The position numbers and the translations under genes are program-made. DNA of 64,000 nucleotides from a bacterium (GTDB lineage Bacteria; Patescibacteriota; Patescibacteriia; UBA10025): positions 307,720 to 371,719 of the forward strand of contig JAKAGM010000002.1 of NCBI GenBank assembly GCA_021815445.1, read 5' to 3'. The notes beneath the pieces are model-generated. The model saw only the letters and a list, made by a program, of their open reading frames with translations. It was not told where the DNA came from and searched no databases. The stretch's first letter is position 1; every line of letters begins with the position of its first letter. Shown here piece after piece: positions 44,401 to 60,708 of the stretch.

Positions 44401-47400
44401 CGGTTAATAGTTCCGGTACGTGGGATTTATCCGGGCAAAATCCGGCGACAATTTTCGCAAACGGCATAACGGTCAGCACCGGGGCGACGTCATTCAATAA
44501 CGGCACCGGAACGGTAGCTTTTAACACAAATAACCAGGCGCTTGCGGGTTCCGTAGGTATGACTTTTGGCGGGACTGCGACTATAGCCAGCGGTGTTACA
44601 TTGACGAATAACAACACGGGCACGGTTAATTTCAGCGCGGCTACTAATTGCCTTACCGGCGCCAGCGCAACCTTATCGATTTTTACGACCGGGACCAATT
44701 CAACCACCCAATGCGCCAGCGCTCTTCTGGGTGCAGGCGGATCCAGCACCGGCTTGTTAAATCCTAGCGGTACCGGGAGCACAGTTGAGTACAACGGGGG
44801 CAGCCAGACGGTAAAAGCGCATAATAGTACGAATAATTATGTCAATATTAAGTTAAGCGGCTCAGGCACCAAGACGCTCACGACTACCGATGTTACGTAT
44901 ACCGGTAACTTCGATATTACCTGCTCGTCGGCCTGCTCGACTGCTCTTGTGGTCGCCAACACCGCTATCCAGGGTACCCTGACAGTCGGTGCAAACGCGA
45001 CCTTCACCGCCGGCGCATTCGCTCTCACGGTAACCGGGACCACCAATGTGCAAAATACCGGCGTTTTATCGATAACATCGGCCACCGGCACCAAGGCGTT
45101 TAACGGCGACGTCACAATCGACAACGGCGGGAGGTGGAGTGTCGCTATATCGGTCAACTTTACATTGCCGGGCAATTTGACAAACAACGGCACATTCACT
45201 CCCAGCACCGGCACCTATACGCTGTCAGGCGCAGGAAAAGCAATCTCCGGCACTTTTGCCAGCCCCTTTACCACCGTCACCCTCACCGGCGGCGGCGCTC
45301 AGAATAATGCGGGGACTTTTACAACGGCAACGCTGAATGTGAATGCCGCGTTTGCCAATACGGGAACGATTACTGTCACCTCGGCTTTGGCCGGGACAAA
45401 TACATTGACTAACAGCACGAATGGAAATTTGAATATTAATGTGGCGGCGGCGAGTTATACGCTCACCGGCCTTGCGGCAAGCGCCTCGGGTAATACAGTT
45501 TCATGGGGATTTGCCGGCGCGCAGACCGTCACTCCGTCGATTAGCTACTACAACCTTACTCTGGCCGGCAGTGGCGCCAAGACACTGACCAACGTAACTA
45601 CGGTTAGCAACAATCTCACTATGGCAGGTACAGCAACTGCCACTATTGTTACGGCCACCATGGCTATCGGCGGAGATTTGGTAGTGGGCGGAGGGACAAC
45701 TATCACTATCGGCGCCACTACGACTATCGGCGGCGGTGATATTACGACTTCCGGCACTTCGGCTACAGTGGGCACTTCAGGCACGCCGACAGTGACCATT
45801 TCCGGCACAGGGAGTCTCGGCGGCGGCACATCACCGGGCCTGACTTTTTACGACCTGACCATTTCTGGTACGCAGACTATCAACGACCCTTATGCCATGA
45901 CCATCAATCACACACTGACGGTCAACGGCACGCTTAACGGCACGGGAAGTCCCGCAACGCTGGGCAGTATCGTCGGTACGGGCACTATTACGATGGCCAG
46001 CCCGTCGGCGTGGCTCGTGTATCCAACTGCCTCAATTAATTTCGGCACCACTTCCGGCTCTACGGCATGGACATTCTATAGCATGACAGTGAGCGCCGTC
46101 CTTGCAAGCGCCGATGTCACTCTTACTACGCAGGCAGGCACCGGTGATATTACCTTTAATGGCACTTTGCAATTGTCCAGTTTTGGCGACTCGTTTTATA
46201 CCAATTTAAATGCCGGCGGCAGAAATTGGATTATGTCGGCTACGAATAATGCAAAGCCCTTTGAGCTCGATGTCGGCGGCGCCGGTGTCCTGATAGCCAG
46301 TACTTCTACGTTCCAATTTACGGGCAATAATGCCTCCGGCAATGTAACCCTGCAAAATGCCACATATAATAATCTGACTTTGGGCGGGGCATCCGCCGAA
46401 ACTTTTGACACTGAGGCCTCGCTGACGGTTTCCGGCACGCTGAACGTTGCCGCGAACGGCACTTTGGCCATCGGCAGTACGCACACCGTGACGCACAGCG
46501 GCGCCACATTGACCCTAGCCGGAATCATCTCCGGCGCCGGACGGCTGGCGTATCAGAGTGCCACGGCATTTCCTACTACGGGGACCATTTCATCGATCGT
46601 GCGATTCGATGCGACGAATAATGATCAAACAATGTCAGCCCGCACATACGGCGGCAACGTCGAGATTTACAACGTCAGCAGTTCATTTACGCGGGCCGTC
46701 ACCATGACCGCGACTGCTACCCAGGTGATCAGCGGCTCCCTAAGCATCAATGCCGCTGGAACTGCCGGGATCACCCTCGATGCATCGGTAAACAACCCGA
46801 CGGTCACTGTCGGGGGGAGTATCTCTTCAACAGCGGGCGGAGGGGGGCTTCAAGTGCTTTACGCAGGTACCGGCTCGTGGACTGTCGGCGCGAACTTCGA
46901 TATGACCAATATCCAGCTGACCGTAGGTACGGGAAACACGATTATAATGTCCGGTACGGGGACCTTTACTTCCGGTGGGTATAACATGCAAAATCTTACG
47001 CTCTCCGGAACTATTACACTTGCAAATGCCGCCCATACGGTATACGGCAACCTCGATATGACGGGGGGGACCATTACCGCCGGGACGTCAACAATGTATA
47101 TGAGAGGGACGGCAAATTTGGTTGGCGGCAACCAGAGTCTCTATAATCTGACCGCAAATGGTAACGCCAATACGCTGACCGTTACCTCCAATGTTACAGT
47201 GACGAATGTGTTGACTATCGGCTCGGTGGGGGACAACAACAACGATACGATGTCCATAAATGGCGGTATCAGCGTGACTTCCGGCACATCGGGTACCGTC
47301 ACGCTCTCGGGAAGCGGGACTGATACCATCTCCGGCGCGGGAACATTGGTAATGCAAAACTCCAACCTGAATACTCTCGGCGTTCTCTCTTCGAAGGTGA

Positions 47401-50400
47401 GATTCGATGCGACCAGCGGCGACATCAACATGCCTGCCCGCACGTACGGCGGCGCCGTAGAGATTTATAACAATCATGCAACCACTGCCCGCGTCGTCAC
47501 CATGCTCGCAACCGCCACGCAGACTCTTTCCGGCGATCTGACGGTCATCGCGGCCAACGGCGGTGACATCACTCTTGCCGGAGCTACATATAATCCTACC
47601 GTCAGCATTACAGGCAGTGTTGCATTTACCAAGAGCAGTACCGGAACGCCTATTATTACCACGGGCACTGGTACGTGGACAGTGGGCACAACGCTTGATT
47701 TGACCAACGGTACGTTTACCGCTGCGGCAACCAATACCGTGCTCATGGGCGGCACCGGCAATCTGATCGGAGCCGGCCAAACATTAATTAACCTCACGAT
47801 TGACGGAAACGGCAACACCGTTACCATAACTACTTCGGATATATCCGTCAGCGGGACGCTCACTATCGGCGGAGCGGCAGACGGTAATAACGATACGCTG
47901 TCGATAGGCTCGGGCAGGCTTGTCACCTCCACGTCCGCAGGCACTGTTACGCTTATTGGCAGCGGCACTGACACCATTTCCGGTACGGGGACTCTTGTCG
48001 TAAAAAACAATAATTTAGGCACGGCTGGGACACTCTCTGCTCCCGTCAGATTCGATGCGACAGCGGCAGATCTGACTATGCCCGCACGGACGTATGGGGG
48101 TGATGTGACAATTTACACATTTAAAGTTGTTGTCGATCGTACGGTTACTATGTCAGCAGGGACATATATCATCTCAGGAAACTTGGACATGAATCCTAAT
48201 AATCCTCAGGGAGGTGTGCGGGCATTAACGCTGGATGCCGCAACAAATGATCCCGCAGTAAATGTCACCGGAAACGTTACAAATTCAGAAACAGGGGTTC
48301 TGGGGTACTCGATTATATTAGCTGGAGCAGGTACATGGACGATTACGGGGTATGCAAATTTTCAAAGTCAATGGGGAACAGGAACTGATTTTTTAACCGA
48401 AACAAACAGCACGCTTGTGATGAACGGGACCTCAAAAACGCTGTACCCGGGCAACAACTTGACTCTGTATAATTTTACTAGCGGGGGCACAATCGCTGCC
48501 TCAGGCATGACTGTAAGTAATACTCTGTTGATATCTTCTGGTACATTAACTATGGATATGACTCTCTTGACCGTGGGGAACAACTTTACTAATAATGGCG
48601 CCTATACGGCTAGCTCAGGCACTGTAAATATGACCGGTACCAGCGGCTCCATAGGCGGATCGGCCTCCACGACATTTTATAACCTTTTGATTAATGGGAC
48701 GAATATCACAACTACGGTGAATACGAGCGCAACGGTAAGCGCTACGCTTACCGTCGGCGCCGCCGGCGACGGTAACAACGACGAGCTCTCTATCGCGAGC
48801 GGCAAGACGCTAACGTCCGCGACTACGGGCACCGTGACGCTCATCGGAAGCGGAACGGACTCAATCACGGGCTTAGGCACGTTAGTCGTGAGAAATTCGA
48901 ATTTAGAAGCCACCAATGGCACTATTTCCGCCAACGTCCAATTCAACGCATCGAGCGGGAGTATTAACATGCCTGCGCGGTCATACGGCGGAAATGTGGA
49001 AATATACAGCTCCGGAATATTGCCGCGCACGGTTACTATTGCATCATCCGGGACAGTCAACATCACCGGAAATCTTACCGTTACTGACGCCGGAACCGGT
49101 GTGTCATTGTCCGGGATGAACAATCCCACTGTGAATATCACCGGCAGCATAAATCCGTGTAATCCAGCCACCGACGCATTTATTACGACCGGAACCGGCG
49201 TATGGACGGTCTCTGCCGGCGCGGACTTTACTCTGTGCTCGCTTACTGCGACAAGCGGCAATACCCTCGTGATGAATGGCGCCGGCACGCTGAGAACCTC
49301 TGTAAATACCCTGCAAAATCTGACGCTCTCCGGTACAATAACCCTCGCCAATGAGGTAGAGACCATCGCAGGCAATCTCGACATGACCGGCGGAACGATT
49401 ACTCCCGGCACATCCACCATAGTAATGACCGGGACTAAAGATCTGATTGGTGGAAGCCAGACTCTTAATAATCTCACCATTAACGGAGTCAACACTACAG
49501 TCACAGCAAAGACTTCGAATCTCAGCGTCTCCGGCACCCTGACGATTGGCGGCGCAGCTGACGGCGATAACGACACATTCACGATCAACAGCGGTATCGC
49601 GGTAACCTCGGGAACTGCAGGTACCGTAACGCTCGTCGGCAGTGGCACCGACTCAATCACCGGTGCGGGAACACTCACTGTTCAAAATTCCAACCTTGGC
49701 ACAGGCGGGGTATTGTCCCCGATAGTACGGTTCGATGCCACAAACGGGGATATCGCAACGATGCCTGCGCGCACATACGGCGGGTTAGTGGAAATTTACA
49801 ACGGCCACGCCAGCACGGCGCGCACAGTGACCATGAGCGCTCTAGCCACCCAGACTCTCTCGGGAAACTTAAGCGTCATTGCAAATAGCGGAGGCAACAT
49901 CACGCTTATCGGCGCTCTAAACAATCCGACAGTCAACATCACCGGCGGCGTTTCGTTCGCCAAAAATAGCACGGGCACTATCACCGTCACTTCGGGCACG
50001 GGCACATGGAGCGTCGGCGGAGCAGTGAACTTTACCAACGGCACCTACACGGCGGCAACTGGTAATGTATTGGCGATGAGCGGCTCTGTCAATCTGATCG
50101 GGAACGGCCAAAGTCTCTATGACCTGAACGTGAACGGGACGACCAATACTGTCACGGCGACGACATCGGACGTCAGCATCGCTGGAACGCTCACGGTGGG
50201 ATCGGGCAACATATTGTCGATTGCATCCGGCCGCACGGTAACATATTCCGGGAGCGGGAATGTCGCCGGTACAGGTACTATCAGCGGCGCCGGAACCATT
50301 ACCTTTACTGATACATCCGGCGGTCCGGGGACGGCACTTACTACCCTGAGCGCTGTCTCGCGCTATGACGCGACAAACGGCAATATCGCCTCCACGACAT

Positions 50401-52559
50401 TGGATGCGAGGACGTACGGAGCAAGAGTTGAGATCTACAGCAATAGCACGACGGCGCGCACAGCTACCTTCGCGACTGGCACATATACGCTCTCCGGCGC
50501 ATCGTCACATCTCTACGTCATTGCCGACGGAGCATCTCCGGGTGATGTCACGCTTATCGGCGCCACGAATAATCCCACGGTAACTATAGGCGGAGATCTT
50601 GATTTCACCGGTGTGGGTACGGCAAGTGAAGCGATCACTTCGGGCACGGGGATATGGACGGCGTCAGGCAATGTGAATTTCACTGACGGCACGTACACGG
50701 CCACGGCGGGCAATACCCTCGTGATGAACGGCACATCAAAGACGCTTACCAGCGCATCACAGACGCTCTATAATGTCACGCTCTCAGGTTCCATCACCCT
50801 CGCAAATGCTACGCACACCATAGCGGGCAACCTTGACATGACCGGCGGCACAATTACCGCGGGAACGTCCACAGTGACGATGACCGGCACGTCGAATACC
50901 CTGAAGGGCGGCGGGAACACGCTGGCAAGTCTCACTATTGACCCTCCATCTGCGGGCACGATTACGCTCTCGACGTCAACGCTTGGCGCGGGAAATGTAT
51001 CGGTAGGCACGAATGGCATACTTGCCGGAACGGTTGATGTTACAGTGACGGGCAATGTTACCGGCGGCGGCGCTATCACTCTCACCGGCGGCACCTTCAA
51101 ACAGCTGGTGAATGCCACAAAGACATTTGGCACCGATGTCGCGTCTGCCAACGACTGGACATTCTATAATCTTTCTTTTGAGGCTGCGAGTACGACAAAG
51201 ACTATTACCTTTAACGGCACGGGAACAGGAAAAATTATCGCTACCAACGATTTAGCGACGGTCTTTAACACGGGATCTGTCGTTGTCGACGACGCAACGA
51301 ATGACCGTATCCTCCAGGTGAATGGGAACGTCAGCATTGTATCAAATACCGAGTTAAAAGCTCCCCCGGCAGCAGCTTTCTCTGTGGCCGGCAATTGGAC
51401 AAACGCGGGTACTTTTACCCCCGGGACCGGAACGGTCACATTCAATGCAACCACCGGAACAAAAACAATTGATACAAGTGCGGCCGCGGCGGGGAATTTC
51501 GGAAATGTTGTGCTGAACGATGGGGTAGGAAACGCGACGTTCCAAATTGCCAATGGGCCGATTACCGTGAATAACAATCTCACGATTACCCATGGGACGC
51601 TTGATACCGGCGCCGCGGGAAACTATGGGATCACTATCGGAGGTAATTGGACCAACAACGGAGTTTTTACGGCAAATAGCGGTCTCGTCACAGCAAATGG
51701 TACCAGCCAGCAGACATTTTCCGGGACGATGACGGGCAGTTCAAAGTTCAACAATCTGACCATTACCAATGTTTCCGGGACTGATCCCGATACCTCACCC
51801 TCGGTGATATTCGGTTCGAGTGCGCAGACCGGGGGCACGTTCACGGCAGCCACGGCCAACACGAAGCTCAGGTTCCTCGCAGGCGGCACCTTCACTTTCC
51901 AGAATATCAGCTTCAACGGCCAGGCAACGGGCACAAGAGTGTCGCTCCGCTCCTCCACATACGGGAGCGTGTGGAATATCAATGTCGCCGGCACGCGGAG
52001 CGTGTCGAATACCAATGTTGAAGATTCCGACGCCTGCGGGCAGGCGCCCGACATCGACGCATCAGATGGGACGAACGTCGATAAAGGCAACAACCATTGC
52101 TGGGATATCAACAGGATATCAGTGTCGCTCTCGGCCAATACAATCAACTTAGGCACCCTGAGCACGAGCACGGTGTCGCAGGGCTCCATGATTTCTACTG
52201 TGACGACAAATGCGCCCGACGGGTATGTCAGCGTTATTTACGATACCCAGGACTTCTCGACGGTAGGAGGGGGGACTATTGCGGATGCCGGCGGTTCTAT
52301 TACTAACGGCACCGCGGGGTACGGAGTATCGAGCTCCATGGCGAGCCAAACGGTTGCCCAGACGACGGGAGCATGTTCATCAGGCGCAGGGACCTTTAAT
52401 GCAACGAGCCTCACCGCGACTCCGCAGACATTCGCGTCGAGTGCCAGCGCTGTTACAGGCCAAGCGACGACGCTCTGTTTCCTGGCGACCCCGAGCGGCA
52501 CCACCGAAGCCGGCGGATACTCTGATACGGCGACTCTGGTGACCACAGGGAGGTTCTAG
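41457..52559 (+). CDS. Giant (3700 aa) membrane-anchored surface protein: N-terminal excisionase/MerR-type HTH, one TM, a Thr/Gly/Asn-rich beta-helix-like repeat region, and a conserved C-terminal domain ending LVTTGRF
   Basis: A continuous ORF whose track start is a TTG codon. The HTH_17-like segment is LSLEQVSEILGVHQNTLRNWDNIGKLKSVRIGKRHDRKY. A basic stretch then precedes the TM helix LLGFWLIGNVRSVIIYGLLGLVVFFF. At least six ~270-aa repeats carry the motif ARTYGG(N/A/D)VEIY. Confidence 0.7.
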   Translation: MRFISLGQFKEKIKRNKRFDFRSLPKLLSLEQVSEILGVHQNTLRNWDNIGKLKSVRIGKRHDRKYERDRIEKLFLDMRASQAGAKRDAQKNGKKHRRGAERRNEGPLLGFWLIGNVRSVIIYGLLGLVVFFFSVQNMSLGKILFARAENDALVTMRLQSADCSGWLNPEKARFIDALAKTPLDEFLETNSAVYSNQFAFRSAGPPALNEVPGQPVQPENTAANTSAAPVNDAAAPPANTAPAPVPSADPAPASSDQTAQVNPQLICQGYTFDQPVPDGSRLEKATLVVSFAADTFANNEDVVDFSYSFNGKDWKKLSSFALLQDMSNATNDGYLSYPIEVSSFDDIKNLSVRVDYNAFPATQGSRAFFDGAALDVLIRKPPPPKLANELTQSTTIVKADVAPSEDPTLDVTVEKKSTLDFLGVGPTTRDVQSVTITDPGGNTKTVNLDIQDKQVGKNTVAQYVIPKEDLSRPGLYKVSMQVEQDGYIQEVSKEFSWGVIAVNVRSSVIEPDTYTEVGMSVLDDFGHAQCAAFIEVTVRHPGNFVEKFSTTDKTVVKNPTCKDQSVTNEPDYSAFFTTTTVGKYTVDVTATTEKGTHTISDSFEVRSNPQFTIERTEFPTRIFPFVDYPVKFTVTSQQDFTGVFMEKVPVGFQIYDITQRGAELGGSNDPQYKVITWPVALTAGKPYTLGYTFNPPDQVPFLYKLGPANIGNFTEARQWQIASDAACSSAGSGAWTTTATWSGCRVGGPIAGDTVQINSGHMITISNSTAVAAASVTIITNNSATVNGLTFGNSGSSLAITGAITIPAATASGGSLVAVDAGSITTTSGTSSVSISGAAALTSIFRISTGSVTLTGGVTFGGTQSNAQLTFTGAGSLTIGAGMGTGGTFTKSTSTVTFNGTGAQNITGYNYNNLVVNNAGLTLTTVQDGANTFTVGGTTTITAGTLTMGNFAHTFTGATSVTGTLNTSGGTTGNRTFTGAVTVNSSGTWDLSGQNPATIFANGITVSTGATSFNNGTGTVAFNTNNQALAGSVGMTFGGTATIASGVTLTNNNTGTVNFSAATNCLTGASATLSIFTTGTNSTTQCASALLGAGGSSTGLLNPSGTGSTVEYNGGSQTVKAHNSTNNYVNIKLSGSGTKTLTTTDVTYTGNFDITCSSACSTALVVANTAIQGTLTVGANATFTAGAFALTVTGTTNVQNTGVLSITSATGTKAFNGDVTIDNGGRWSVAISVNFTLPGNLTNNGTFTPSTGTYTLSGAGKAISGTFASPFTTVTLTGGGAQNNAGTFTTATLNVNAAFANTGTITVTSALAGTNTLTNSTNGNLNINVAAASYTLTGLAASASGNTVSWGFAGAQTVTPSISYYNLTLAGSGAKTLTNVTTVSNNLTMAGTATATIVTATMAIGGDLVVGGGTTITIGATTTIGGGDITTSGTSATVGTSGTPTVTISGTGSLGGGTSPGLTFYDLTISGTQTINDPYAMTINHTLTVNGTLNGTGSPATLGSIVGTGTITMASPSAWLVYPTASINFGTTSGSTAWTFYSMTVSAVLASADVTLTTQAGTGDITFNGTLQLSSFGDSFYTNLNAGGRNWIMSATNNAKPFELDVGGAGVLIASTSTFQFTGNNASGNVTLQNATYNNLTLGGASAETFDTEASLTVSGTLNVAANGTLAIGSTHTVTHSGATLTLAGIISGAGRLAYQSATAFPTTGTISSIVRFDATNNDQTMSARTYGGNVEIYNVSSSFTRAVTMTATATQVISGSLSINAAGTAGITLDASVNNPTVTVGGSISSTAGGGGLQVLYAGTGSWTVGANFDMTNIQLTVGTGNTIIMSGTGTFTSGGYNMQNLTLSGTITLANAAHTVYGNLDMTGGTITAGTSTMYMRGTANLVGGNQSLYNLTANGNANTLTVTSNVTVTNVLTIGSVGDNNNDTMSINGGISVTSGTSGTVTLSGSGTDTISGAGTLVMQNSNLNTLGVLSSKVRFDATSGDINMPARTYGGAVEIYNNHATTARVVTMLATATQTLSGDLTVIAANGGDITLAGATYNPTVSITGSVAFTKSSTGTPIITTGTGTWTVGTTLDLTNGTFTAAATNTVLMGGTGNLIGAGQTLINLTIDGNGNTVTITTSDISVSGTLTIGGAADGNNDTLSIGSGRLVTSTSAGTVTLIGSGTDTISGTGTLVVKNNNLGTAGTLSAPVRFDATAADLTMPARTYGGDVTIYTFKVVVDRTVTMSAGTYIISGNLDMNPNNPQGGVRALTLDAATNDPAVNVTGNVTNSETGVLGYSIILAGAGTWTITGYANFQSQWGTGTDFLTETNSTLVMNGTSKTLYPGNNLTLYNFTSGGTIAASGMTVSNTLLISSGTLTMDMTLLTVGNNFTNNGAYTASSGTVNMTGTSGSIGGSASTTFYNLLINGTNITTTVNTSATVSATLTVGAAGDGNNDELSIASGKTLTSATTGTVTLIGSGTDSITGLGTLVVRNSNLEATNGTISANVQFNASSGSINMPARSYGGNVEIYSSGILPRTVTIASSGTVNITGNLTVTDAGTGVSLSGMNNPTVNITGSINPCNPATDAFITTGTGVWTVSAGADFTLCSLTATSGNTLVMNGAGTLRTSVNTLQNLTLSGTITLANEVETIAGNLDMTGGTITPGTSTIVMTGTKDLIGGSQTLNNLTINGVNTTVTAKTSNLSVSGTLTIGGAADGDNDTFTINSGIAVTSGTAGTVTLVGSGTDSITGAGTLTVQNSNLGTGGVLSPIVRFDATNGDIATMPARTYGGLVEIYNGHASTARTVTMSALATQTLSGNLSVIANSGGNITLIGALNNPTVNITGGVSFAKNSTGTITVTSGTGTWSVGGAVNFTNGTYTAATGNVLAMSGSVNLIGNGQSLYDLNVNGTTNTVTATTSDVSIAGTLTVGSGNILSIASGRTVTYSGSGNVAGTGTISGAGTITFTDTSGGPGTALTTLSAVSRYDATNGNIASTTLDARTYGARVEIYSNSTTARTATFATGTYTLSGASSHLYVIADGASPGDVTLIGATNNPTVTIGGDLDFTGVGTASEAITSGTGIWTASGNVNFTDGTYTATAGNTLVMNGTSKTLTSASQTLYNVTLSGSITLANATHTIAGNLDMTGGTITAGTSTVTMTGTSNTLKGGGNTLASLTIDPPSAGTITLSTSTLGAGNVSVGTNGILAGTVDVTVTGNVTGGGAITLTGGTFKQLVNATKTFGTDVASANDWTFYNLSFEAASTTKTITFNGTGTGKIIATNDLATVFNTGSVVVDDATNDRILQVNGNVSIVSNTELKAPPAAAFSVAGNWTNAGTFTPGTGTVTFNATTGTKTIDTSAAAAGNFGNVVLNDGVGNATFQIANGPITVNNNLTITHGTLDTGAAGNYGITIGGNWTNNGVFTANSGLVTANGTSQQTFSGTMTGSSKFNNLTITNVSGTDPDTSPSVIFGSSAQTGGTFTAATANTKLRFLAGGTFTFQNISFNGQATGTRVSLRSSTYGSVWNINVAGTRSVSNTNVEDSDACGQAPDIDASDGTNVDKGNNHCWDINRISVSLSANTINLGTLSTSTVSQGSMISTVTTNAPDGYVSVIYDTQDFSTVGGGTIADAGGSITNGTAGYGVSSSMASQTVAQTTGACSSGAGTFNATSLTATPQTFASSASAVTGQATTLCFLATPSGTTEAGGYSDTATLVTTGRF
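46600..50500 (+). repeat. Tandem ~640-890-nt coding repeats inside the giant gene
   Basis: The ARTYGGxVEIY-containing units recur at about 46631, 47444, 48083, 48975, 49762 and 50407. Confidence 0.6.
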
Positions 52560-52841
52560 AATCTTGAAGCAAAAACAGGTTTTCTGCAAAATCTAGGCAA
52601 CAAGAGCCTTCTCCGCAGAGGCGGATCCGCTTCCGGTGGAAAAGGTCTTTGTTATTGCCAGGGAATCCTGCCCGCCCCGCTTTGCGGAGCGAGGCGGGGG
52701 AATCAAGTCCATGGTTGATAGACACTCAAGAGCAAAGTATTTGACAAGAAACGATAAGTGTGCTATGCTGTAGCCAAGTGAAATGACAGTTTGAGTTTTT
52801 TCTGAAAACAAATTCTTAAAATCACCCAAAAATAAGATTGT

Positions 52842-53933
52842 ATGAGTCGAGTCTGCTCATATCCTCAATCAAAGTCCGCACATAAATACGTGAACCTGTT
52901 TTTGGTCATCCTTTACGTGGCAGTTTTTGCTTTTCTCGTGCCATTGCAGCCCGCCTCTGCCGCCACTCTCTCTACCTCCCGTGATTATCTGAACCGTGAA
53001 ATAGCCGACCTTGCCAGCGGTCTCCAGCACGAAGTCTTTCTCACCACCGTCGGCGCAGTCAGCGGCGGAGCCGGTATCAACAAAGTCATCCTCGTCTTCC
53101 CTGATGCAGACGACGGCAAATGGTGCCGCACCGCAGGCACTGACCTTGTCGCGACAGGCATTGCCAATCCTTCCGGCGGCGCCACGGAAACCGCCACAAT
53201 CCTTCCCGGCACCCTGACAGCCGCCTGTACCCAGGGAGCGGGGGCTTCAAGCTATGACACAATTACCGTCTCGGGCGTTAACAATCTTTCGGCGACTACC
53301 AAGTACGGCGTCCGCATCGCCCAGGCAGGATCTCCGGTAGGCCTGCTTGGCACCGCAACAGCCGCAGCCAACAATATCCAGGTGACGGTCAAGACGAACA
53401 ACGGCACCTCGGACATTGATACCGGAACCGTCGCCCTTTCACTCATCACCAACGACCAGGTGTCAGTCACGGCAACCGTGACTCCGACCCTGACCGTCGT
53501 CTTGAGCGCCAATACCGTCGCTCTCGGCACGCTTGCCACAGGAACGGTGACCCAGGGCTCTATCACCAGCACCGTGACCACCAATGCTAGCGGGGGCTAT
53601 GTCTCGCAGGTGAAGTACAACAATACGCTGACGTCGTTGGCGTCTGACACCATTGCCGACGCCGGCGGCACCATCACCAACGGCACCGCGGGATTCGGGG
53701 CTTCAACTTCGGCAACCAGCCAAGGCATTGCCACCATCACCACAGCCTGTTCGTCAGGTGCCGGAACCTTTAATGCATCATCCCTGACCACGGCCTTCCA
53801 GACCTTTGCCTCTGCAGCGGCGGCCGTCAGCAGTGATGCCACCACCCTTTGCTTCCTTGCCACGATCAGCGGCACCACTCCCGCCGGGTCTTACTCGAGC
53901 ACGAGCACGCTGGTGACGACAGGGAGGTTCTAA
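52842..53933 (+). CDS. Secreted Thr/Ala/Gly-rich protein sharing the giant protein's C-terminal domain (paralog A)
   Basis: Signal peptide cleaved near ASA-ATLS. The C-terminal ~150 aa aligns with the giant protein's C-terminus (conserved C...C pair, LATxSGTT, ends STLVTTGRF). Confidence 0.6.
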   Translation: MSRVCSYPQSKSAHKYVNLFLVILYVAVFAFLVPLQPASAATLSTSRDYLNREIADLASGLQHEVFLTTVGAVSGGAGINKVILVFPDADDGKWCRTAGTDLVATGIANPSGGATETATILPGTLTAACTQGAGASSYDTITVSGVNNLSATTKYGVRIAQAGSPVGLLGTATAAANNIQVTVKTNNGTSDIDTGTVALSLITNDQVSVTATVTPTLTVVLSANTVALGTLATGTVTQGSITSTVTTNASGGYVSQVKYNNTLTSLASDTIADAGGTITNGTAGFGASTSATSQGIATITTACSSGAGTFNASSLTTAFQTFASAAAAVSSDATTLCFLATISGTTPAGSYSSTSTLVTTGRF

Positions 53934-53936
53934 GAC
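52946..53936 (+). repeat. Tandem duplication, unit 1 (~991 bp, apparently 100% identical to unit 2)
   Basis: The sequence from GCAGCCCGCCTCTGCC through TTCTAAGACT recurs at an offset of 1189 bp. Both strands translate identically in the two units. Confidence 0.8.
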
Positions 53937-54027
53937 TTAATAAGAATAATTCTCGCTTAAAGCTGGTTGACCCTTCTCTGTTTGCTTGATACCATCATAT
54001 GCATAGGGGAAACACAAAAGTTACATT

Positions 54028-55122
54028 ATGATACACAAAAGAAAATTACTGCTCATGAGTAAAATGTTTCGGCGCGTTAGTTGTGCGTTCTCAACCATTG
54101 CAGTTCTTGTAGCGGTCATTTTAAATTTAACTATGCAGCCCGCCTCTGCCGCCACTCTCTCTACCTCCCGTGATTATCTGAACCGTGAAATAGCCGACCT
54201 TGCCAGCGGTCTCCAGCACGAAGTCTTTCTCACCACCGTCGGCGCAGTCAGCGGCGGAGCCGGTATCAACAAAGTCATCCTCGTCTTCCCTGATGCAGAC
54301 GACGGCAAATGGTGCCGCACCGCAGGCACTGACCTTGTCGCGACAGGCATTGCCAATCCTTCCGGCGGCGCCACGGAAACCGCCACAATCCTTCCCGGCA
54401 CCCTGACAGCCGCCTGTACCCAGGGAGCGGGGGCTTCAAGCTATGACACAATTACCGTCTCGGGCGTTAACAATCTTTCGGCGACTACCAAGTACGGCGT
54501 CCGCATCGCCCAGGCAGGATCTCCGGTAGGCCTGCTTGGCACCGCAACAGCCGCAGCCAACAATATCCAGGTGACGGTCAAGACGAACAACGGCACCTCG
54601 GACATTGATACCGGAACCGTCGCCCTTTCACTCATCACCAACGACCAGGTGTCAGTCACGGCAACCGTGACTCCGACCCTGACCGTCGTCTTGAGCGCCA
54701 ATACCGTCGCTCTCGGCACGCTTGCCACAGGAACGGTGACCCAGGGCTCTATCACCAGCACCGTGACCACCAATGCTAGCGGGGGCTATGTCTCGCAGGT
54801 GAAGTACAACAATACGCTGACGTCGTTGGCGTCTGACACCATTGCCGACGCCGGCGGCACCATCACCAACGGCACCGCGGGATTCGGGGCTTCAACTTCG
54901 GCAACCAGCCAAGGCATTGCCACCATCACCACAGCCTGTTCGTCAGGTGCCGGAACCTTTAATGCATCATCCCTGACCACGGCCTTCCAGACCTTTGCCT
55001 CTGCAGCGGCGGCCGTCAGCAGTGATGCCACCACCCTTTGCTTCCTTGCCACGATCAGCGGCACCACTCCCGCCGGGTCTTACTCGAGCACGAGCACGCT
55101 GGTGACGACAGGGAGGTTCTAA
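54028..55122 (+). CDS. Secreted Thr/Ala/Gly-rich protein (paralog B), identical to A after the signal peptide
   Basis: A different N-terminal signal peptide (MIHKRK.../MSKMFRR...), then mature sequence identical to paralog A. Confidence 0.6.
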   Translation: MIHKRKLLLMSKMFRRVSCAFSTIAVLVAVILNLTMQPASAATLSTSRDYLNREIADLASGLQHEVFLTTVGAVSGGAGINKVILVFPDADDGKWCRTAGTDLVATGIANPSGGATETATILPGTLTAACTQGAGASSYDTITVSGVNNLSATTKYGVRIAQAGSPVGLLGTATAAANNIQVTVKTNNGTSDIDTGTVALSLITNDQVSVTATVTPTLTVVLSANTVALGTLATGTVTQGSITSTVTTNASGGYVSQVKYNNTLTSLASDTIADAGGTITNGTAGFGASTSATSQGIATITTACSSGAGTFNASSLTTAFQTFASAAAAVSSDATTLCFLATISGTTPAGSYSSTSTLVTTGRF

Positions 55123-55125
55123 GAC
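54135..55125 (+). repeat. Tandem duplication, unit 2
   Basis: See unit 1. Confidence 0.8.
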
Positions 55126-55159
55126 TATATCTTTGGATGTGATCATAAGGAGGAACTCT

Positions 55160-56263
55160 ATGATATTCAAAAATAAATTAGCCGCGATCCTGTTTTTCAG
55201 TATTATCGCCGGACTAGTCGTTATTCCGCACGCAAGCCATGCCTTGACGCTGATTCCTCCGTCTCTTGAGTTCCAAGCCACTCCGGGTCAGACGTACCAG
55301 ACGACTGTCAAAGTATTTAACGAAGAGGAAAAAGATATCCAGGTATATACCGAGGTCGCCAATTTCGGTCCCCAGGGCGAGTCAGGCGTTCCCGCGTTTG
55401 ATTTTACCCAGCAAAGCACTGATTTAAGCGCATGGATTACGGTAGATAAGGGACCGTTTGCGATCAAGCCCGGGGAACGGATAGAGATTCCCATCAAAGT
55501 GAATCCGCCAAAAAACGCGGAGCCCGGCGGCCATTATTCCGCGATTTTCTTTTCACAAAATGCTCCCACTGATTCCGCGGGGACTCAGGTCGGGATTGCG
55601 TCAAAAATCGGCGTCCTTCTCCTCGTCAAAATCTCAGGTGACGTCAAAGAAGAGGGAAGTATAAAGGAATTCTCAGTGAGTGCGACAAAGATGCTGACTC
55701 GGTTGCCCGTCGATTTTAACGTACGTTTTGAAAATACTGGAAATGTCCATCTTCGTCCTACCGGGGCCATTACCATCAGCAATATGTTCGGACACGTCGT
55801 AGACACCGTGCAGATCAACCAGCAAAAAGGCGCCACGCTGCCCAAGTCGATCAGAAAGTATGACGCCCTCTGGGAACGGGCGCAGGTGAAGGCGACCACA
55901 GGAAACGGCTGGAGTAAGTTTTGGTCCGAATACAGAAATGAGCGCCTGAACTTCGGAATTGGGAAATACAAAGCTGCTCTCAGCATGGTCGCAGGGACTA
56001 ACGACGGTATCCGTGACACAAAGACCTTAAGTTTCTGGATTGTACCGTGGCACGTCCTGTTGATTTACGGGGTTGCGCTTGTTATTATCTTGCTCGCCCT
56101 GTGGCACCTGATTAAGCAATACAACAAGTGGTTGATCAACAAAGCCCTCAAATCACGGGCAAGCGTCCCGGGTGATAGCGATAAACAAAAAGAGAAAGCT
56201 GTCGTCAAGAATGAAAGCGGCAAGAGTGCCGGAGATAAGAATCAGCGGGATAAGGGCAAGTAA
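55160..56263 (+). CDS. Cell-surface protein with N-terminal signal, beta-rich ectodomain, C-terminal TM anchor and charged tail (DUF916-like architecture)
   Basis: AAGGAGG ribosome-binding site 6 nt before the ATG. The signal peptide IIAGLVVIPHASHA, the C-terminal TM WIVPWHVLLIYGVALVIILLALW and a Lys/Asp-rich tail are all present. Confidence 0.55.
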   Translation: MIFKNKLAAILFFSIIAGLVVIPHASHALTLIPPSLEFQATPGQTYQTTVKVFNEEEKDIQVYTEVANFGPQGESGVPAFDFTQQSTDLSAWITVDKGPFAIKPGERIEIPIKVNPPKNAEPGGHYSAIFFSQNAPTDSAGTQVGIASKIGVLLLVKISGDVKEEGSIKEFSVSATKMLTRLPVDFNVRFENTGNVHLRPTGAITISNMFGHVVDTVQINQQKGATLPKSIRKYDALWERAQVKATTGNGWSKFWSEYRNERLNFGIGKYKAALSMVAGTNDGIRDTKTLSFWIVPWHVLLIYGVALVIILLALWHLIKQYNKWLINKALKSRASVPGDSDKQKEKAVVKNESGKSAGDKNQRDKGK

Positions 56264-56292
56264 ATTATTTTATACCGTTCAATGACGCCGAT

Positions 56293-57156
56293 ATGACGAC
56301 ACTGCGCGCATTGTGTCGCTGTTTGCGATACATTATTGCCGGAGTCCTCGTTGCGGCGATGGTTATACCCTCGCAAGTTTTTGCGCTTGATATTAATGTC
56401 ACCGCGGAAGTGCCCGTACCGGTACCGCCGGAGATTATCGATGCAACCGTAATATTCAGCGGCTTTTCATATCCGAATTCCGCAATGCGGATACTCAAGG
56501 ACGGTACGCAAGTTGTAACAGGCGCTGCTGACGCCCAAGGCCGGTACACTATCACGGTCACGACAGCGCCGGGCGCATATACGTTCGGCGTCATTGGCAA
56601 AGATATTCGCGGGAGAGACGGAGCAGTCACCAACTTCTCCCTCGCTCTCACCAGTGGGGCGACAGTGACTATTAGCGATGTCTTTTTGGCGCCGACTATC
56701 GCGACGAACGCCACAAGCGTTACCGCGGGCGAGACTGTCGCTTTTTCAGGGTTTACCGTGCCGCAAAGCACCGTTACCCTTACGGTAAATTCGTTTCAGG
56801 AAAAGATATACACGGCTACCTCGAATAGCGCCGGAGAGTGGCTGATCAACGTTGCCACGAGTACGTTTGAAGCCGGTACGCACACCGCATCAGCGAAATC
56901 GACAACGGGGACATTGGCATCGGAAATTTCCGGCATCGTCAGCTTTATCGTAAAAGGCGCCCAGCCCCCGAACAAATGCGACGGTAAGGTTTCCGGTGAC
57001 ATTAATTGTGACGGAAAGGTAGACCTTATTGATTTCAGCATCATGCTGTATTATTGGAATGTGACCCATCCGGCGAATGCCCGGGTAGACATCAATGCTG
57101 ATGGCGTCGTGGATGAGGCAGATTTCAGTATTTTACTCTTTTATTGGACAGGGTAG
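56293..57156 (+). CDS. Secreted Ig-like-domain protein with C-terminal type-I dockerin
   Basis: Two 22-residue Ca-binding dockerin repeats, DINCDGKVDLIDFSIMLYYW and DINADGVVDEADFSILLFYW. Confidence 0.65.
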   Translation: MTTLRALCRCLRYIIAGVLVAAMVIPSQVFALDINVTAEVPVPVPPEIIDATVIFSGFSYPNSAMRILKDGTQVVTGAADAQGRYTITVTTAPGAYTFGVIGKDIRGRDGAVTNFSLALTSGATVTISDVFLAPTIATNATSVTAGETVAFSGFTVPQSTVTLTVNSFQEKIYTATSNSAGEWLINVATSTFEAGTHTASAKSTTGTLASEISGIVSFIVKGAQPPNKCDGKVSGDINCDGKVDLIDFSIMLYYWNVTHPANARVDINADGVVDEADFSILLFYWTG

Positions 57157-57163
57157 TCATCGT

Positions 57164-58306
57164 ATGCGAAAAGTTCAATCAGTGAAATATTTGATTGCCG
57201 GTGCGCTCGTTGTGGCGGGTTTATTCGGTATTCGCAGTGCTGCGCATGCCGCATTACTCTTTACCTACCCGCAGGAATACCAGGCGGTGGCGAATGACAC
57301 GCTTGTCGTCGATATTAGGCTGGACAGCAAGCTGGATCCCGTGAATGTGGTGAAAGGGACGTTGCTGTATCCCACTGACCTTCTCGCCGTGGAGGACGTT
57401 TCATACCGCGGATCATTCCTGACGCTGTGGATCCAGCAGCCCACCGTTGACGCAAAGGCGGGAACCGTCACATTCCTGGGGGGCGTTCCTCATGGCAGCT
57501 ACGTAGCCGGTGGACGCGTTATGACCGTTACTTTCCGTGCGTTGTCCCAGGGTACTGCGAAGCTTGTTTTTGACCAGGGGTTGTCGAGCGTTCTCCTGAA
57601 TGACGGCAAGGGAACCAAGGCCCCGCTCCAGACACAGCAGGGGACCTATTATATCGTGGATGCTTTAACAAGCATCGTCCGAATAGACTCATCGACCCAT
57701 CCGGACGAAAATACGTGGTATCCCTTTAACCTGCTTAAAGTTCATTGGGATCCAAAACCCGGCGCTTCCTATAGTTATGTGCTGAGCAAGGATCCTTTTG
57801 AAACCCCTGATGATCTCGCAGATTCGGCCATCGGTGATGTACAGTTTACCGATCTCGATGACGGGGCATATTACTTTACCCTCAAGGAGCTTATCCCGGG
57901 TCATGCCTGGAGCGTCGTAGGCAGGCGGAGAGCGCTTATCGACAGGATAGGCCCGACAGGTTTGGAGTATAAGATCGGCAGCGATCCCACCGCGTATGGA
58001 GGGAAAACATTTTTAGCATTCACAGCGTCAGATGCGGCGTCGGGCATCGATCACTTTGATGTAGTCGAAGGAAATACGGTGACATCACCGGCTACAAGTC
58101 CGTACATTCTCGCAGATCAGACCCGCCACAAGGGGATTATCCTCCGGGTATATGATAAGGCGGGTAATATGACCGAGGCCACGGTTTCCCAATCTTCTCC
58201 GATTACCTCCTCAACAGCGACATTCATAGTCGTTGGCGCCGGTATTGTTCTAGGTGCTATTGTAGTAATATGGATTCGCACGCGAAAGCGCAAAAAAGAA
58301 CAATAA
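57164..58306 (+). CDS. Surface protein with N-terminal cohesin-like domain, a conserved STHPDxNxWY domain and a C-terminal TM anchor
   Basis: Signal peptide, a ~140-aa beta-sandwich-like region that is paralogous to the N-terminus of the next gene, then the C-terminal TM FIVVGAGIVLGAIVVIWI followed by RTRKRKK. Confidence 0.55.
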   Translation: MRKVQSVKYLIAGALVVAGLFGIRSAAHAALLFTYPQEYQAVANDTLVVDIRLDSKLDPVNVVKGTLLYPTDLLAVEDVSYRGSFLTLWIQQPTVDAKAGTVTFLGGVPHGSYVAGGRVMTVTFRALSQGTAKLVFDQGLSSVLLNDGKGTKAPLQTQQGTYYIVDALTSIVRIDSSTHPDENTWYPFNLLKVHWDPKPGASYSYVLSKDPFETPDDLADSAIGDVQFTDLDDGAYYFTLKELIPGHAWSVVGRRRALIDRIGPTGLEYKIGSDPTAYGGKTFLAFTASDAASGIDHFDVVEGNTVTSPATSPYILADQTRHKGIILRVYDKAGNMTEATVSQSSPITSSTATFIVVGAGIVLGAIVVIWIRTRKRKKEQ

Positions 58307-60699
58307 GCCGGGGACACTTTGCACGAAAGATTTTTATCTTTCTTGCCGCCATCCTTGCCTCGGGCGGTATGTTTTTTGTTTTGCGTCCTGTGCCGGCTTC
58401 TGCCGCCACGTTCAGCCTGGTCCCGTCGAGCGGGACTATTACTATCGGGCAACAGACGGATATCACGCTGACTCTAGGCAGTCCGGGGCAGGCGATTAAT
58501 GCGGCCGAAGCGGTAATAACATTTCCCAGCACCTACCTTGCGGTAGATAGCGTCACCAAAGGCGCGCTCTTCAACCATTGGCCGGTAGGTCCTGTTTTCT
58601 CGAACGCACCGGGTACTGTCACGTTCGCAGGCGGCCTGCCATCCCCGGGATTCTCCGGTGACTCAGGAACGGTGTTCGCCGTCGCTTTTCGCGGAGTGTC
58701 CCCGGGTGCCGGCGTACAGGTATGCATCACAGCTGCGCGGATACTCGCAAACGACGGGAACGGCACGGACGTACTTCAGCCTCCTGATTGCGCGGTTTAT
58801 GACGTCGTGGCTGGGAAGGTTCCCCCTGCTCCACAGGTAACCTCCTCGACTCACCCCGACCAGAATGCATGGTATCCGCTTTCCAGTCCCGCAATATCGT
58901 GGACTATAGGCGAGGGCGTACTTGATTTTAGCTACGTGCTTGACCGCACATCGGGCACCCAGCCTGACGAACAGGGAGAAGGAATAGGCACGGCGAAAAC
59001 CTACACCGGTCTTGACGACGGAATATGGTATTTTCACGTACGCGCAAAAAATATATTCGGGTGGGGAGCTACGGGGCATTTTACCCTGAGGATAGATACT
59101 GTCGCTCCGCTTCCTTTTGCCATCAATCTCCTCGATGGGCAAAACACAGAATCGCATACTCCGCGGATCAGCTTTGAAACGACCGACGCCACTTCTGGCG
59201 TCCAGTACTATGAGATCATGCTCAATGGAGGTCCGGCGGTAACCTTGCCCGTCGGATCGACTCTCCCATACACATTTTCACAGCTCCAAAACGGAGAATA
59301 TACGGTTATCGCGACGGCCGTGGATTACTCGGGAAATCGTACAACGGCGTCGACGCTCTTTACCGTAGTTTCTCCGACACTTTTGAACCGCATAGACCAG
59401 ATCATCAATATTACAAAGGAGCAGATTGCGAAAATCCTGCCCGCACCCGTGATATCCACTATCACAAATGTCACAAAGGACATCGCTAAAACGATCGAAA
59501 CCCTGCGCTCGAACACTGAAGTAACGAATGTTTTTAAGGATATCGTCCAGCCGACCACGAGCACCGCAGCCATCATCGCAACTGTCGGCGTCGCGACATC
59601 AACGGCGACAGTCGAATTGACCAACATTTTTTACTTGCTCTTCCGTTTCGGGTATTTCTGGCTGCTGCCTATCTCGTTCGGCAAAAAACGAAAGCCGTGG
59701 GGCGTCGTCTTTGACAGCTCGACAGGCCGGCCTATCAAAGGAGTGATGGTCAGAATCTTTGCGAAAGAATTCAACAAGCTCAAAGAAACCCAGATTACCG
59801 ATGATCAGGGAAGGTTCGGCTTCCTGGTGGATATCGGAGAATACTATGTGACGGTGTCGCGTCCCGGATATTTTTTTCCTTCCCGCCTCATCCTTACCCC
59901 CGTTATCAGCCGTTTCGAAAACATTTACCGCGGGGAAGTTTTTTCTATCAAAGAGCGGATTGAATCCGCTATTTCAATCAATGTTCCCATCGATCCCGAC
60001 GACCAGCATGTTTCGCGCCTCCGCCTCAACTGGCTGCGGGTCATTAATCTCTTGGGTGTTATTCTCGACAAAATGAATGCTCCGCTGTTGATCGGCGGCA
60101 CGCTCTTGAGCTGGGCGACGCTGATCATGCAACCGCGGCTTGGGAACTATCTCGTGCTTGCGCTGTATGGATTCCTCATCTTGGTAAAATTTTACCTCGC
60201 GAAAAGGGTCCAGCGGTCATGGGGAATCGTCAGAGACGCCGTGACGGACAAGCCCGTCGAACTCGCCGTCGTGCGCATCCATAATATTGCATCCGGTGCC
60301 GTGGCTGCCACCAAGATTACCAACGGCGAAGGCAAATTTTCCGCCCTTGTCATGCCCGGTCAGTATTACCTCATGGTAATAAAGGCCGGCTATCAGGCGT
60401 ACCAAAGCAAGACCGTGAACATCGTCAAGCAGCGCGGTTTGATCACCACGGAAGTGCGGTTGAGGCCTATTGAAAAAAAACAACCGCAAATTTCATCTAT
60501 GCCCCACTTAGGCGAACCTCCAGCGGTACAACCGCGCACAACCGATGAGCAAGAAGCCATAGCAGAACATGGCCCCGGTTTCACTGATGCTTCTTCTGGC
60601 GAGAAACAACTGCCGCATTCCATGCCGCCCAAGAGTGACGATCTTCTCTCAGGAGAAGAAGGAGATTCTACCCCAGGCAATCCTCAAAAAAAATTGTAA
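58270..60699 (+). CDS. Cohesin-like + STHPDxNxWY domain protein with a multi-TM region and two carboxypeptidase-regulatory-like (CarbopepD_reg) domains. The start is uncertain: the first 33 codons (58270-58368) overlap the preceding gene, and the hydrophobic signal-like segment precedes Met34.
   Basis: The N-terminal domain is paralogous to the 57164 gene. The CarbopepD_reg-like segments are WGVVFDSSTGRPIKGVMVRI...TDDQGRFGF...GEYYVTVSRPGYF and WGIVRDAVTDKPVELAVVRI...GEGKF...GQYYLMVIKAGYQ. Confidence 0.55.
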   Translation: MDSHAKAQKRTISRGHFARKIFIFLAAILASGGMFFVLRPVPASAATFSLVPSSGTITIGQQTDITLTLGSPGQAINAAEAVITFPSTYLAVDSVTKGALFNHWPVGPVFSNAPGTVTFAGGLPSPGFSGDSGTVFAVAFRGVSPGAGVQVCITAARILANDGNGTDVLQPPDCAVYDVVAGKVPPAPQVTSSTHPDQNAWYPLSSPAISWTIGEGVLDFSYVLDRTSGTQPDEQGEGIGTAKTYTGLDDGIWYFHVRAKNIFGWGATGHFTLRIDTVAPLPFAINLLDGQNTESHTPRISFETTDATSGVQYYEIMLNGGPAVTLPVGSTLPYTFSQLQNGEYTVIATAVDYSGNRTTASTLFTVVSPTLLNRIDQIINITKEQIAKILPAPVISTITNVTKDIAKTIETLRSNTEVTNVFKDIVQPTTSTAAIIATVGVATSTATVELTNIFYLLFRFGYFWLLPISFGKKRKPWGVVFDSSTGRPIKGVMVRIFAKEFNKLKETQITDDQGRFGFLVDIGEYYVTVSRPGYFFPSRLILTPVISRFENIYRGEVFSIKERIESAISINVPIDPDDQHVSRLRLNWLRVINLLGVILDKMNAPLLIGGTLLSWATLIMQPRLGNYLVLALYGFLILVKFYLAKRVQRSWGIVRDAVTDKPVELAVVRIHNIASGAVAATKITNGEGKFSALVMPGQYYLMVIKAGYQAYQSKTVNIVKQRGLITTEVRLRPIEKKQPQISSMPHLGEPPAVQPRTTDEQEAIAEHGPGFTDASSGEKQLPHSMPPKSDDLLSGEEGDSTPGNPQKKL

Positions 60700-60708
60700 A
60701 CTAACACT

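Follow-up and report, generated by a model that had tools for sequence, protein, structure and literature searches.

Twin pilin genes, a giant secreted protein and a chaperone-like gene in a probable cluster for a divergent Pam-type pilus of a Kerfeldbacteria-like bacterium

Candidate-phyla-radiation (CPR) bacteria are believed to live in attachment to other cells, and their attachment organelles are barely known. The subject of the present analysis is a stretch of 64,000 nucleotides (the window) from a bacterium of the Patescibacteriota lineage UBA10025, taken from the forward strand of contig JAKAGM010000002.1 (assembly GCA_021815445.1, positions 307,720 to 371,719). Between positions 41457 and 60699, the window contains two genes for small secreted proteins of identical mature sequence, preceded by a gene for a secreted protein of 3,700 residues and followed by genes for a chaperone-like protein, a dockerin protein and two cohesin-like proteins. 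This row of genes is probably an operon-like cluster for a divergent Pam-type pilus in a Kerfeldbacteria-like CPR bacterium, with the small proteins as pilins and the giant protein as tip adhesin. The features of the cluster, all on the forward strand of the window, are as follows.

41457-52559, +, giant secreted protein of 3,700 aa, rich in Thr, Gly, Ala, Ser and Asn, with one hydrophobic segment (open reading frame, ORF); candidate tip adhesin
41535-41678, +, helix-turn-helix domain of HTH_17/excisionase type, giant residues 27-74, upstream of the hydrophobic segment (Pfam HTH_17, E 1.3e-6; phrog_66, E 2.5e-7)
41793-41873, +, only hydrophobic segment of the giant, residues ~113-139, followed by ILFARA/END (hydropathy scan); candidate signal anchor or cleavable signal
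52116-52556, +, Pam-type pilin C-terminal domain (CTD) of the giant, with no pilin N-domain or linker before it (65% identity to pilin residues 217-363; NF058581, E 3.5e-6)
52741-52769, +, promoter-like site of pilin copy 1, TTGACA-17-TATGCT with TG extended -10 (10/12 matches; consensus match only)
52842-53933, +, pilin gene copy 1, 363 aa: signal peptide 1-40, beta-sandwich N-domain ~41-202, linker ~203-216 (53448-53489), CTD 217-363 (53490-53930)
52945-53937, +, exact repeat copy 1, 993 bp (sequence comparison)
53967-53995, +, promoter-like site of pilin copy 2, TTGACC-17-TACCAT with TG extended -10 (9/12 matches; consensus match only)
54028-55122, +, pilin gene copy 2, 364 aa: different signal peptide, mature protein identical to that of copy 1
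54134-55126, +, exact repeat copy 2, 993 bp (sequence comparison)
55160-56263, +, membrane-anchored chaperone-like protein (PamC/D-like, WxLIP-like) with two immunoglobulin (Ig)-like domains: signal peptide, domain 1 at residues ~29-158, domain 2 at ~166-294, transmembrane (TM) helix from 297
56293-57156, +, Ig-Ig-dockerin protein, candidate fibre terminator or adaptor (Dockerin_1, E 1.5e-9; Big_13; Big_6), with a linker-like mature N-terminus and no acceptor domain
57164-58306, +, protein with a cohesin-like N-domain, C-terminal TM helix and basic tail, no LPXTG (family alignment); candidate membrane anchor
58270-60699, +, second cohesin-like protein, with hydrophobic segments and CarboxypepD_reg domains (domain scans, family alignment); candidate anchor

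Direct sequence comparison of the window showed the two repeat copies to be 100% identical over 993 bp at an offset of 1189 bp. The initial annotation of this DNA, in which the repeat was given as 991 bp (52946-53936 and 54135-55125), was correct in exact identity and offset while falling 1 bp short at each end. The 5' edge of the repeat lies inside the c-region of the signal peptide, in the QPASA codons, and the 3' edge lies 4 nt past the stop codon; the identical tract thus comprises the mature coding part only, and the two pilins are identical after the site ...QPASA/ATLSTS. The further statement that promoter and signal-peptide regions differ between the copies also holds, as the signal peptides are unrelated, the promoter-like sites separate and the upstream flanks unlike. 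Each pilin gene is preceded by its own predicted sigma-70-like site with an extended -10 element, and identity between the flanks is as low as 28% upstream (ungapped) and 23% downstream.

An independent assembly (GCA_027341205.1, contig DAIENG010000003.1) is 100% identical to window positions 54567-62263 and starts 433 bp inside repeat copy 2. Because short reads assemble exact 1-kb repeats poorly, and because this second contig breaks within the repeat, the second copy, or its perfect identity, might be thought an artefact of assembling a genome from metagenomic reads. A break at this place is, however, what is expected of a real repeat that was left unresolved, although it is not proof of one. 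An artefact is highly improbable given that the copies sit in different, functional-looking 5' contexts, each in frame at the signal-peptide cleavage region, that an assembly stutter would have duplicated the flanks as well, and that two tandem pilin genes are common among relatives. The repeat was confirmed as a real feature of the sequence, with a copy number of probably two.

The same features bear on how the two genes became identical, for which the initial annotation, under the heading of a tandem duplication, had listed recent duplication, gene conversion and copy-number variation. Simple tandem duplication was rejected: with a period of 1189 bp, a second copy of the 196-bp spacer or of the 196 bp ahead of the first gene would be expected, and there is none (23-28% identity). 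Among the three listed origins, gene conversion between older tandem paralogues appears to fit the sequences better than the others. Conversion is limited by the extent of homology, and the identity stops at the very point where homology between the genes runs out; such an event would homogenise precisely the homologous, mature-coding part of older tandem pilin paralogues. Paired pilin paralogues on one contig were found commonly in relatives (8 contig pairs, 49-81% identity), and in one relative (locus L002, CAZFGG010000003.1, 9929-12195) tandem paralogues of 67% DNA identity share one perfect 143-bp tract that lies around the linker and the start of the CTD and looks like a gene-conversion-type mosaic. 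The alternative, in which the gene was duplicated very recently and one copy then received a new 5' end, would account for 100% identity over 993 bp and agrees with the variation of copy number in the clade, where relatives have one copy or two. It is nevertheless rather unlikely, since not only the unrepeated spacer and upstream region but also the complete, unrelated signal peptides of both copies, their separate promoter-like sites and the mosaic of the diverged L002 copies speak against it. Signal peptides were too variable across homologues for their orthology to tell conversion from duplication.

The reference for the pilin assignment is the Pam pilus of Candidatus Mycosynbacter amalyticus, for which filament structures were obtained by electron cryomicroscopy (Troman et al., bioRxiv 10.64898/2026.03.03.709456). 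These fibres form by donor-strand exchange with the help of chaperones and without an usher, and their subunits PamA and PamB each consist of an N-domain, a linker that serves as donor strand and a truncated Ig CTD that accepts the linker of the next subunit (bioRxiv 10.64898/2026.03.03.709456). The Pam operon also encodes PamC and PamD, which are PapD-like chaperones with a C-terminal membrane helix, the CTD-only tip protein PamT and the RbmA-like membrane anchor PamR, the latter with two fibronectin type III (FnIII) domains, an N-terminal strand and a TM helix (bioRxiv 10.64898/2026.03.03.709456). The NCBIfam models for Pam are NF058581 (CPR_Pam_pilin_C), which derives from this 2026 preprint and has a curated cut-off of 55 bits, and NF058579 (CPR_pilus_PamT).

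Residues 223-363 of the window pilin matched NF058581 with an E value of 4.7e-9 (36.5 bits), and the C-terminal 141 residues of the 3,700-aa protein did so with an E value of 3.5e-6 (27 bits). Both matches covered positions 3-148 of the 148 in the hidden Markov model (HMM) and ran to the C-terminus of the protein. The same model was matched by 43 of 44 diverse members of the pilin family (best E 2.2e-13), none of which appears to reach 55 bits. In an AlphaFold2 model of the pilin (mean predicted local distance difference test score, pLDDT, 90), approximately 10 strands were assigned in residues 45-199, none in 200-216 and a second all-beta domain in 217-361, so that the predicted plan of beta-sandwich N-domain, linker and C-domain behind a Sec signal peptide is that of PamA and PamB. 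Paired cysteines are present in both domains, as in PamA and PamB; signal peptides with an AxA site were found across the pilin homologues; and the linker is conserved, with D205 and Q206 at 90% or more and an alternating VxVxAxV pattern.

Homology searches returned 151 pilin homologues with E values of 0.001 or less, and the 120 listed were mostly about 330-370 aa long and unnamed or hypothetical. Those with a taxon label were all from Kerfeldbacteria, Parcubacteria or Patescibacteria. Two records from metagenome-assembled genomes carry the label Gammaproteobacteria, which was taken as mislabelling. For the protein P0001 no contig location was found. No Pfam match was obtained anywhere in the pilin, and sequence and profile searches of PDB sequences gave no useful match to the pilin or to the CTD. 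Foldseek searches with the two-domain model returned generic tandem-Ig matches only, with TM-scores of about 0.2. A sortase-assembled pilus was rejected as the pilins end in ...LVTTGRF without a TM segment or LPXTG motif and no sortase match was noted among the genes scanned (29992-62938).

The alignment of the last ~150 residues of the small proteins with the C-terminus of the giant, including a common cysteine pair and a common terminal LVTTGRF, had been noted at the outset and was borne out. Thus, pilin residues 217-363 and the last 147 residues of the giant are 65% identical without a gap (E 7e-49), the paired cysteines are 34 residues apart in both (C303/C337 in the pilin, C3640/C3674 in the giant) and both proteins end in LVTTGRF. 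Gapless identity of this extent and the matched cysteine spacing exclude a likeness of composition only, which the initial annotation had named as a refuting condition, and the similarity is homology. A profile of the CTD matched only three ORFs in the window, namely the two pilins and the giant (160 bits for the giant, whose own sequence was included in the profile), whereas a profile of the pilin N-domain and linker did not match the giant. Because the acceptor CTD is present and the donor linker and N-domain are absent, the giant has the architecture of a tip subunit. The proposal of major subunits and a giant tip adhesin in one filament is thereby supported, although the position of the giant at the tip is, like polymerisation itself, something we infer. 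The match to the Pam system, the link to WxLIP and the dockerin and cohesin genes downstream had not been recognised in the initial annotation.

Outside the window, the CTD profile matched 2,587 clusters, 742 of them at E values of 1e-10 or less. Among the best 150 of these 2,587 clusters, practically every protein has the domain at its very C-terminal end, over lengths of 121 to 3,391 aa, and from these sequences it looks like a general mounting module for passengers. The longest of these proteins (P0250) is a CTD-bearing giant with the same N-terminus as the window giant, comprising a helix-turn-helix domain and a hydrophobic segment, with ...APASA/ES at the equivalent site, while other giants carry plain signals there. 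In the window giant (41457-41900), a helix-turn-helix, DNA-binding domain of cytoplasmic type stands ahead of the signal or anchor sequence, and a basic stretch lies between the two. The ILFARA/END site is AxA-like, and cleavage may occur there. The passenger of about 3,400 aa had no match in Pfam, PDB sequences or PHROG, and a homology search with the N-terminal 420 residues gave zero matches. Tandem DNA repeats were not detected in the giant gene by Tandem Repeats Finder, nor internal repeats by self-BLAST. A faint match to Pfam WxLIP_HBD (DUF3324), below cut-off, was noted at residues 435-496 (42759-42944, E 0.009).

The suggestion that the gene at 55160 encodes an assembly factor gained support from the structure predicted for its product, which models as a membrane-anchored PapD/WxLIP-like chaperone. 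In the AlphaFold2 model (pLDDT 89), two Ig-like domains follow the signal peptide, and a long helix (297-334) forms the C-terminal part. In domain 1, a low-confidence loop (133-149) is followed by a hydrophobic last strand, KIGVLLLVKI, and in the model these two elements resemble an F1-G1 loop and G1 strand. The best Foldseek matches were the 2026 WxLIP structures from Enterococcus faecium, 9i25_C ("bound to long WxL", E 3.4e-11) and 9i1y (E about 1e-11 to 1e-10 for these matches), and the next were chaperones of chaperone-usher systems (CsuC, CfaA, DraB and Caf1M, with TM-scores against the target of 0.50-0.58); the match probability was 1.0 for WxLIP and for these chaperones alike. At the sequence level, the protein scored 20.7 bits on Pfam WxLIP_PGBD (DUF916), for which the cut-off is 27.3, but 19 of 44 relatives match this family (best E 9e-8), and a profile match to EfmWxLIP1 in the PDB had an E value of 0.056. 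No NCBIfam model matched it. Homologues with E values of 0.001 or less numbered 494, and those with a taxon label were nearly all from CPR bacteria, one record being labelled Bathyarchaeia. These findings suggest that the protein is a relative of WxLIP. As modelled, it also fits the description of PamC and PamD as operon-encoded PapD-like chaperones with a TM helix, of which it may be an orthologue.

Such a relationship to WxLIP gives rise to a different explanation of the whole cluster. In the WxL/Csc clusters of Bacilli, a small WxL protein, a large WxL protein and WxLIP (DUF916, DUF3324 and a TM helix) are encoded together (PMC10599100, PMC9772566; PDB 9i25, 9i1y), and WxLIP is predicted to insert a strand into the incomplete WxL sandwich, the WxL proteins being thought to be wall-bound and not polymerised (PMC10599100, PMC9772566). 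By analogy, the CTD in the window would be a docking module completed by a strand of the WxLIP-like protein, and the small and giant proteins would be held at the surface as a complex rather than a fibre. Apart from the structural matches, which include the complex with long WxL, and the WxLIP_PGBD matches of relatives, this explanation draws on a shared cluster logic of small proteins and one large protein with a strictly C-terminal domain beside a DUF916-like TM protein, and on the strand by which WxLIP is predicted to complete its partner. However, a WxL domain was excluded for the CTD, which has no Trp-x-Leu motif and no Trp at all and for which none of 44 family members matched Pfam WxL even at E values up to 5. 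The CTD instead matches the Pam pilin HMM, PamT-like genes are present in sister loci, the pilins retain a conserved interdomain linker with a near-invariant D205-Q206, and WxL loci come almost all from Bacilli. A surface complex without a fibre is consequently judged unlikely.

Comparison with loci of relatives (L001-L006) provided the strongest link of the window cluster to Pam, which is one of context. In L005 and L006, a gene for a PamT-like protein of 247-263 aa lies just upstream of an orthologous pilin gene (42-43% identity to the window pilin). On NF058581, with its cut-off of 55, the two PamT-like proteins reached 143 and 129 bits and so pass. Their scores on NF058579 were 171 and 158 bits (E 2e-50 and 3e-46), below the equivalog cut-off of 240. 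They are encoded on the same side of the pilin as the giant in the window and in L001-L004, where the gene order of the cluster is conserved and the pilin is preceded upstream by a giant homologue that ends in this CTD, directly adjacent in L002 and L004 and separated from it by one or two unrelated ORFs in L001 and L003. The intervening ORFs (L001 6619-9835, L003 7653-9263; 526-541 aa) have neither CTD nor pilin N-domain, did not match any NCBIfam model significantly and have no counterpart in the window. In L005 (8191-12108) and L006 (4443-8461), a chaperone-like gene was noted on each side of the pair of PamT-like and pilin genes, with no giant directly upstream, and L004 has two chaperone genes in tandem.

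Downstream of the chaperone-like gene, this probable CPR pilus cluster continues with adjacent genes for a dockerin protein and for two membrane proteins of cohesin-like type (56293-60699). The mature N-terminus of the Ig-dockerin protein, LDINVTAEVPVPV (56386-56424), aligns with the pilin linker NDQVSVTATVTPT, and the counterparts of the linker in the alignment of its orthologues are QQVVITATVPEKPP in L004 and DIISISATVPSQTP in L003. Long forms of the Ig-dockerin protein (L002, P0098, P0120) have a full pilin N-domain and linker before the Ig-Ig-dockerin part, and no CTD. When an HMM of the linker built from pilins only was searched against 1,534 six-frame ORFs, three Ig-dockerin proteins from related loci were the best non-pilin matches, at a weak 6-12 bits. 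The dockerin of the window protein is of type I. In both of the next two proteins the cohesin-like domain is N-terminal. Pfam Cohesin was matched by 8 of 11 members of the family alignment of the cohesin-like proteins (best E 2.4e-9), and the family profile matched the cohesin of PDB 4ums_A with an E value of 4.6e-4. In the protein from 57164, the start codon of which agrees with the gene call in GCA_027341205.1, a weak LPXTG_anchor match reflects only the TM helix and basic tail. The protein from 58270 carries several hydrophobic segments together with CarboxypepD_reg/transthyretin-like domains. The Ig-dockerin and cohesin-TM proteins may be functional substitutes of PamR, and in the simplest model its place would be taken by a terminator that can donate a strand but not accept one and that is docked to cohesins in the membrane.

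Assembly of the pilus would then proceed as follows. Subunits would be exported by the Sec system and the CTD of each capped by the membrane-anchored two-Ig chaperone from 55160. The twin genes would supply the shaft, as one mature pilin made with two signal peptides from two promoters, and subunits would be joined head to tail as each newcomer places its linker strand in the CTD groove of the subunit before it. The giant, with an acceptor CTD only and that at its extreme C-terminus, could start a fibre but not be inserted into one, which would leave its passenger of about 3,400 aa as a distal adhesin, and in related loci the short PamT-like protein would take this tip role. At the proximal end, the Ig-dockerin protein (56293), with a linker-like strand and no CTD, would cap the fibre and dock onto the membrane cohesins from 57164 and 58270.

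Several results weigh against a Pam-type pilus. The window pilin and the giant both fall below the curated cut-off of NF058581, and the pilin N-domain matches no described family in Pfam scans. For the chaperone-like protein, the closest structure is that of WxLIP, whose proposed role is to keep WxL proteins at the wall and not to polymerise them, and the N-terminal hydrophobic segment of the giant might stay uncleaved. At the proximal end, the N-terminus of the window Ig-dockerin protein was not detected by the linker HMM, which found orthologues only; the N-domain of the protein from 57164 has no Pfam match of its own, its cohesin assignment coming from the family alignment; and the scan of the genes between 41457 and 62938 did not reveal an anchor of the PamR kind (RbmA-like, two FnIII domains and a TM helix). 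With these points taken into account, a divergent Pam-type pilus is still regarded as the probable product of the cluster.

The cluster is followed by genes for a GT2 glycosyltransferase (60709-61416), a PAP2 phosphatase (61399-61980, reverse strand), a tRNA (62213-62286) and an S26 signal peptidase I (62303-62938), and the L002 cluster is also followed by GT2 and signal peptidase I genes. In the Pam preprint, extra density on a serine of PamA was consistent with post-translational modification (bioRxiv 10.64898/2026.03.03.709456). A TasA/camelysin-type fibre with a dedicated signal peptidase was considered for the S26 gene and rejected, as no Pfam match to the TasA/camelysin family was obtained at E values up to 5 and a chaperone gene is present. 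On the other side, an LCP (LytR-CpsA-Psr) cell-envelope gene (39786-41276, reverse strand) is divergent from the giant gene, and upstream of it are the housekeeping genes der, pth and mfd. Four tRNAs were the only Rfam matches in the window.

The Pam pilus was defined only in 2026 and in one cultured parasite of the Saccharimonadia (bioRxiv 10.64898/2026.03.03.709456). The present locus suggests that a form of the system which escapes the curated models of today occurs in a Kerfeldbacteria-like lineage, and that the acceptor domain is a general mounting device, in view of the 2,587 clusters with proteins of up to about 3,400 aa and of the 3,700 aa noted here. The giant tip protein would be a natural candidate for host recognition, and the twin genes would illustrate neatly how copies of a surface-fibre subunit, each with its own promoter, evolve in concert. 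The locus also offers a concrete model for termination and anchoring of a fibre without PamR, and the link of its chaperone-like protein to WxLIP in sequence and structure suggests a new view of the WxL clusters, so far little understood, that enterococci, listeriae and lactobacilli carry. A broader conjecture, possible but doubtful, is that Pam pili and WxL/Csc complexes are branches of one ancient usher-less system of membrane chaperones and donor strands in monoderm-type envelopes, in which passengers of 100 to more than 3,000 residues are mounted on a strictly C-terminal acceptor domain. The present locus would then be a bridging form, with its fibre closed and tethered by a donor-strand dockerin on membrane cohesins, and such a tether would be a mode of pilus anchoring not described before.

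Among known systems, chaperone-usher pili (Pap/Fim, Csu, CFA/I, Caf1) are similar to the system described here in the fold of the chaperone-like protein and in the logic of an acceptor-only tip adhesin; the pilin model also weakly matches the adhesins PapG and FimH, which likewise carry a C-terminal pilin domain. They differ in having an outer membrane and an usher, no usher-like match being noted among the genes scanned from 41457 to 62938, and the chaperone of the window is membrane-anchored, sequence similarity is lacking and the putative donor strand is an internal linker rather than an N-terminal extension. Cellulosome anchoring, as represented by the anchoring scaffoldin B cohesin (PDB 4ums), is comparable in that a type I dockerin and cohesin-like modules on cell-bound proteins are encoded by adjacent genes. 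In contrast with cellulosomes, enzymes and scaffoldin repeats are absent, the cohesins are held by TM helices and not by S-layer homology domains or sortase, and the dockerin protein has an N-terminus like a pilin linker.

With WxL/Csc clusters, the locus shares small proteins and one large adhesin-like protein with a common, strictly C-terminal domain and, adjacent to them, a protein with signal peptide, two Ig domains and TM helix, for which WxLIP is the best structural and a weak sequence match. It differs in its lack of WxL motifs and of a WxL Pfam match, in the additional N-domain and linker of the small proteins, in its occurrence in CPR bacteria and not Bacilli, and in that neither a sortase nor an LPXTG protein came to light among the scanned genes.

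Similarities to Pam are more extensive. Both systems are restricted to CPR bacteria and include pilins that are exported by Sec and have a beta-sandwich N-domain, a linker, paired cysteines and a C-terminal acceptor domain that, in the window, matches the Pam CTD model below its cut-off, together with an operon-encoded two-Ig chaperone with a C-terminal TM helix and no usher. In a variant form, an acceptor-only subunit is also encoded beside the pilins, with PamT-like genes that pass the CTD cut-off in sister loci. The lineage is different, since the preprint stresses Saccharimonadia and Microgenomatia and does not mention ABY1, Paceibacteria or Kerfeldbacteria. Otherwise, the locus departs from Pam in four respects. 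The window proteins score below the curated HMM cut-off; the acceptor-only subunit that stands in for the single-domain PamT has 3,700 aa; and two shaft genes code for one identical mature pilin, as opposed to the dissimilar PamA and PamB. Finally, the chaperone-like protein appears related to WxLIP, a link absent from the Pam preprint, in which WxL is not mentioned, and the part of the operon in which a PamR-like FnIII and TM anchor was not recognised is occupied by the Ig-dockerin protein and membrane cohesins as a candidate anchor.

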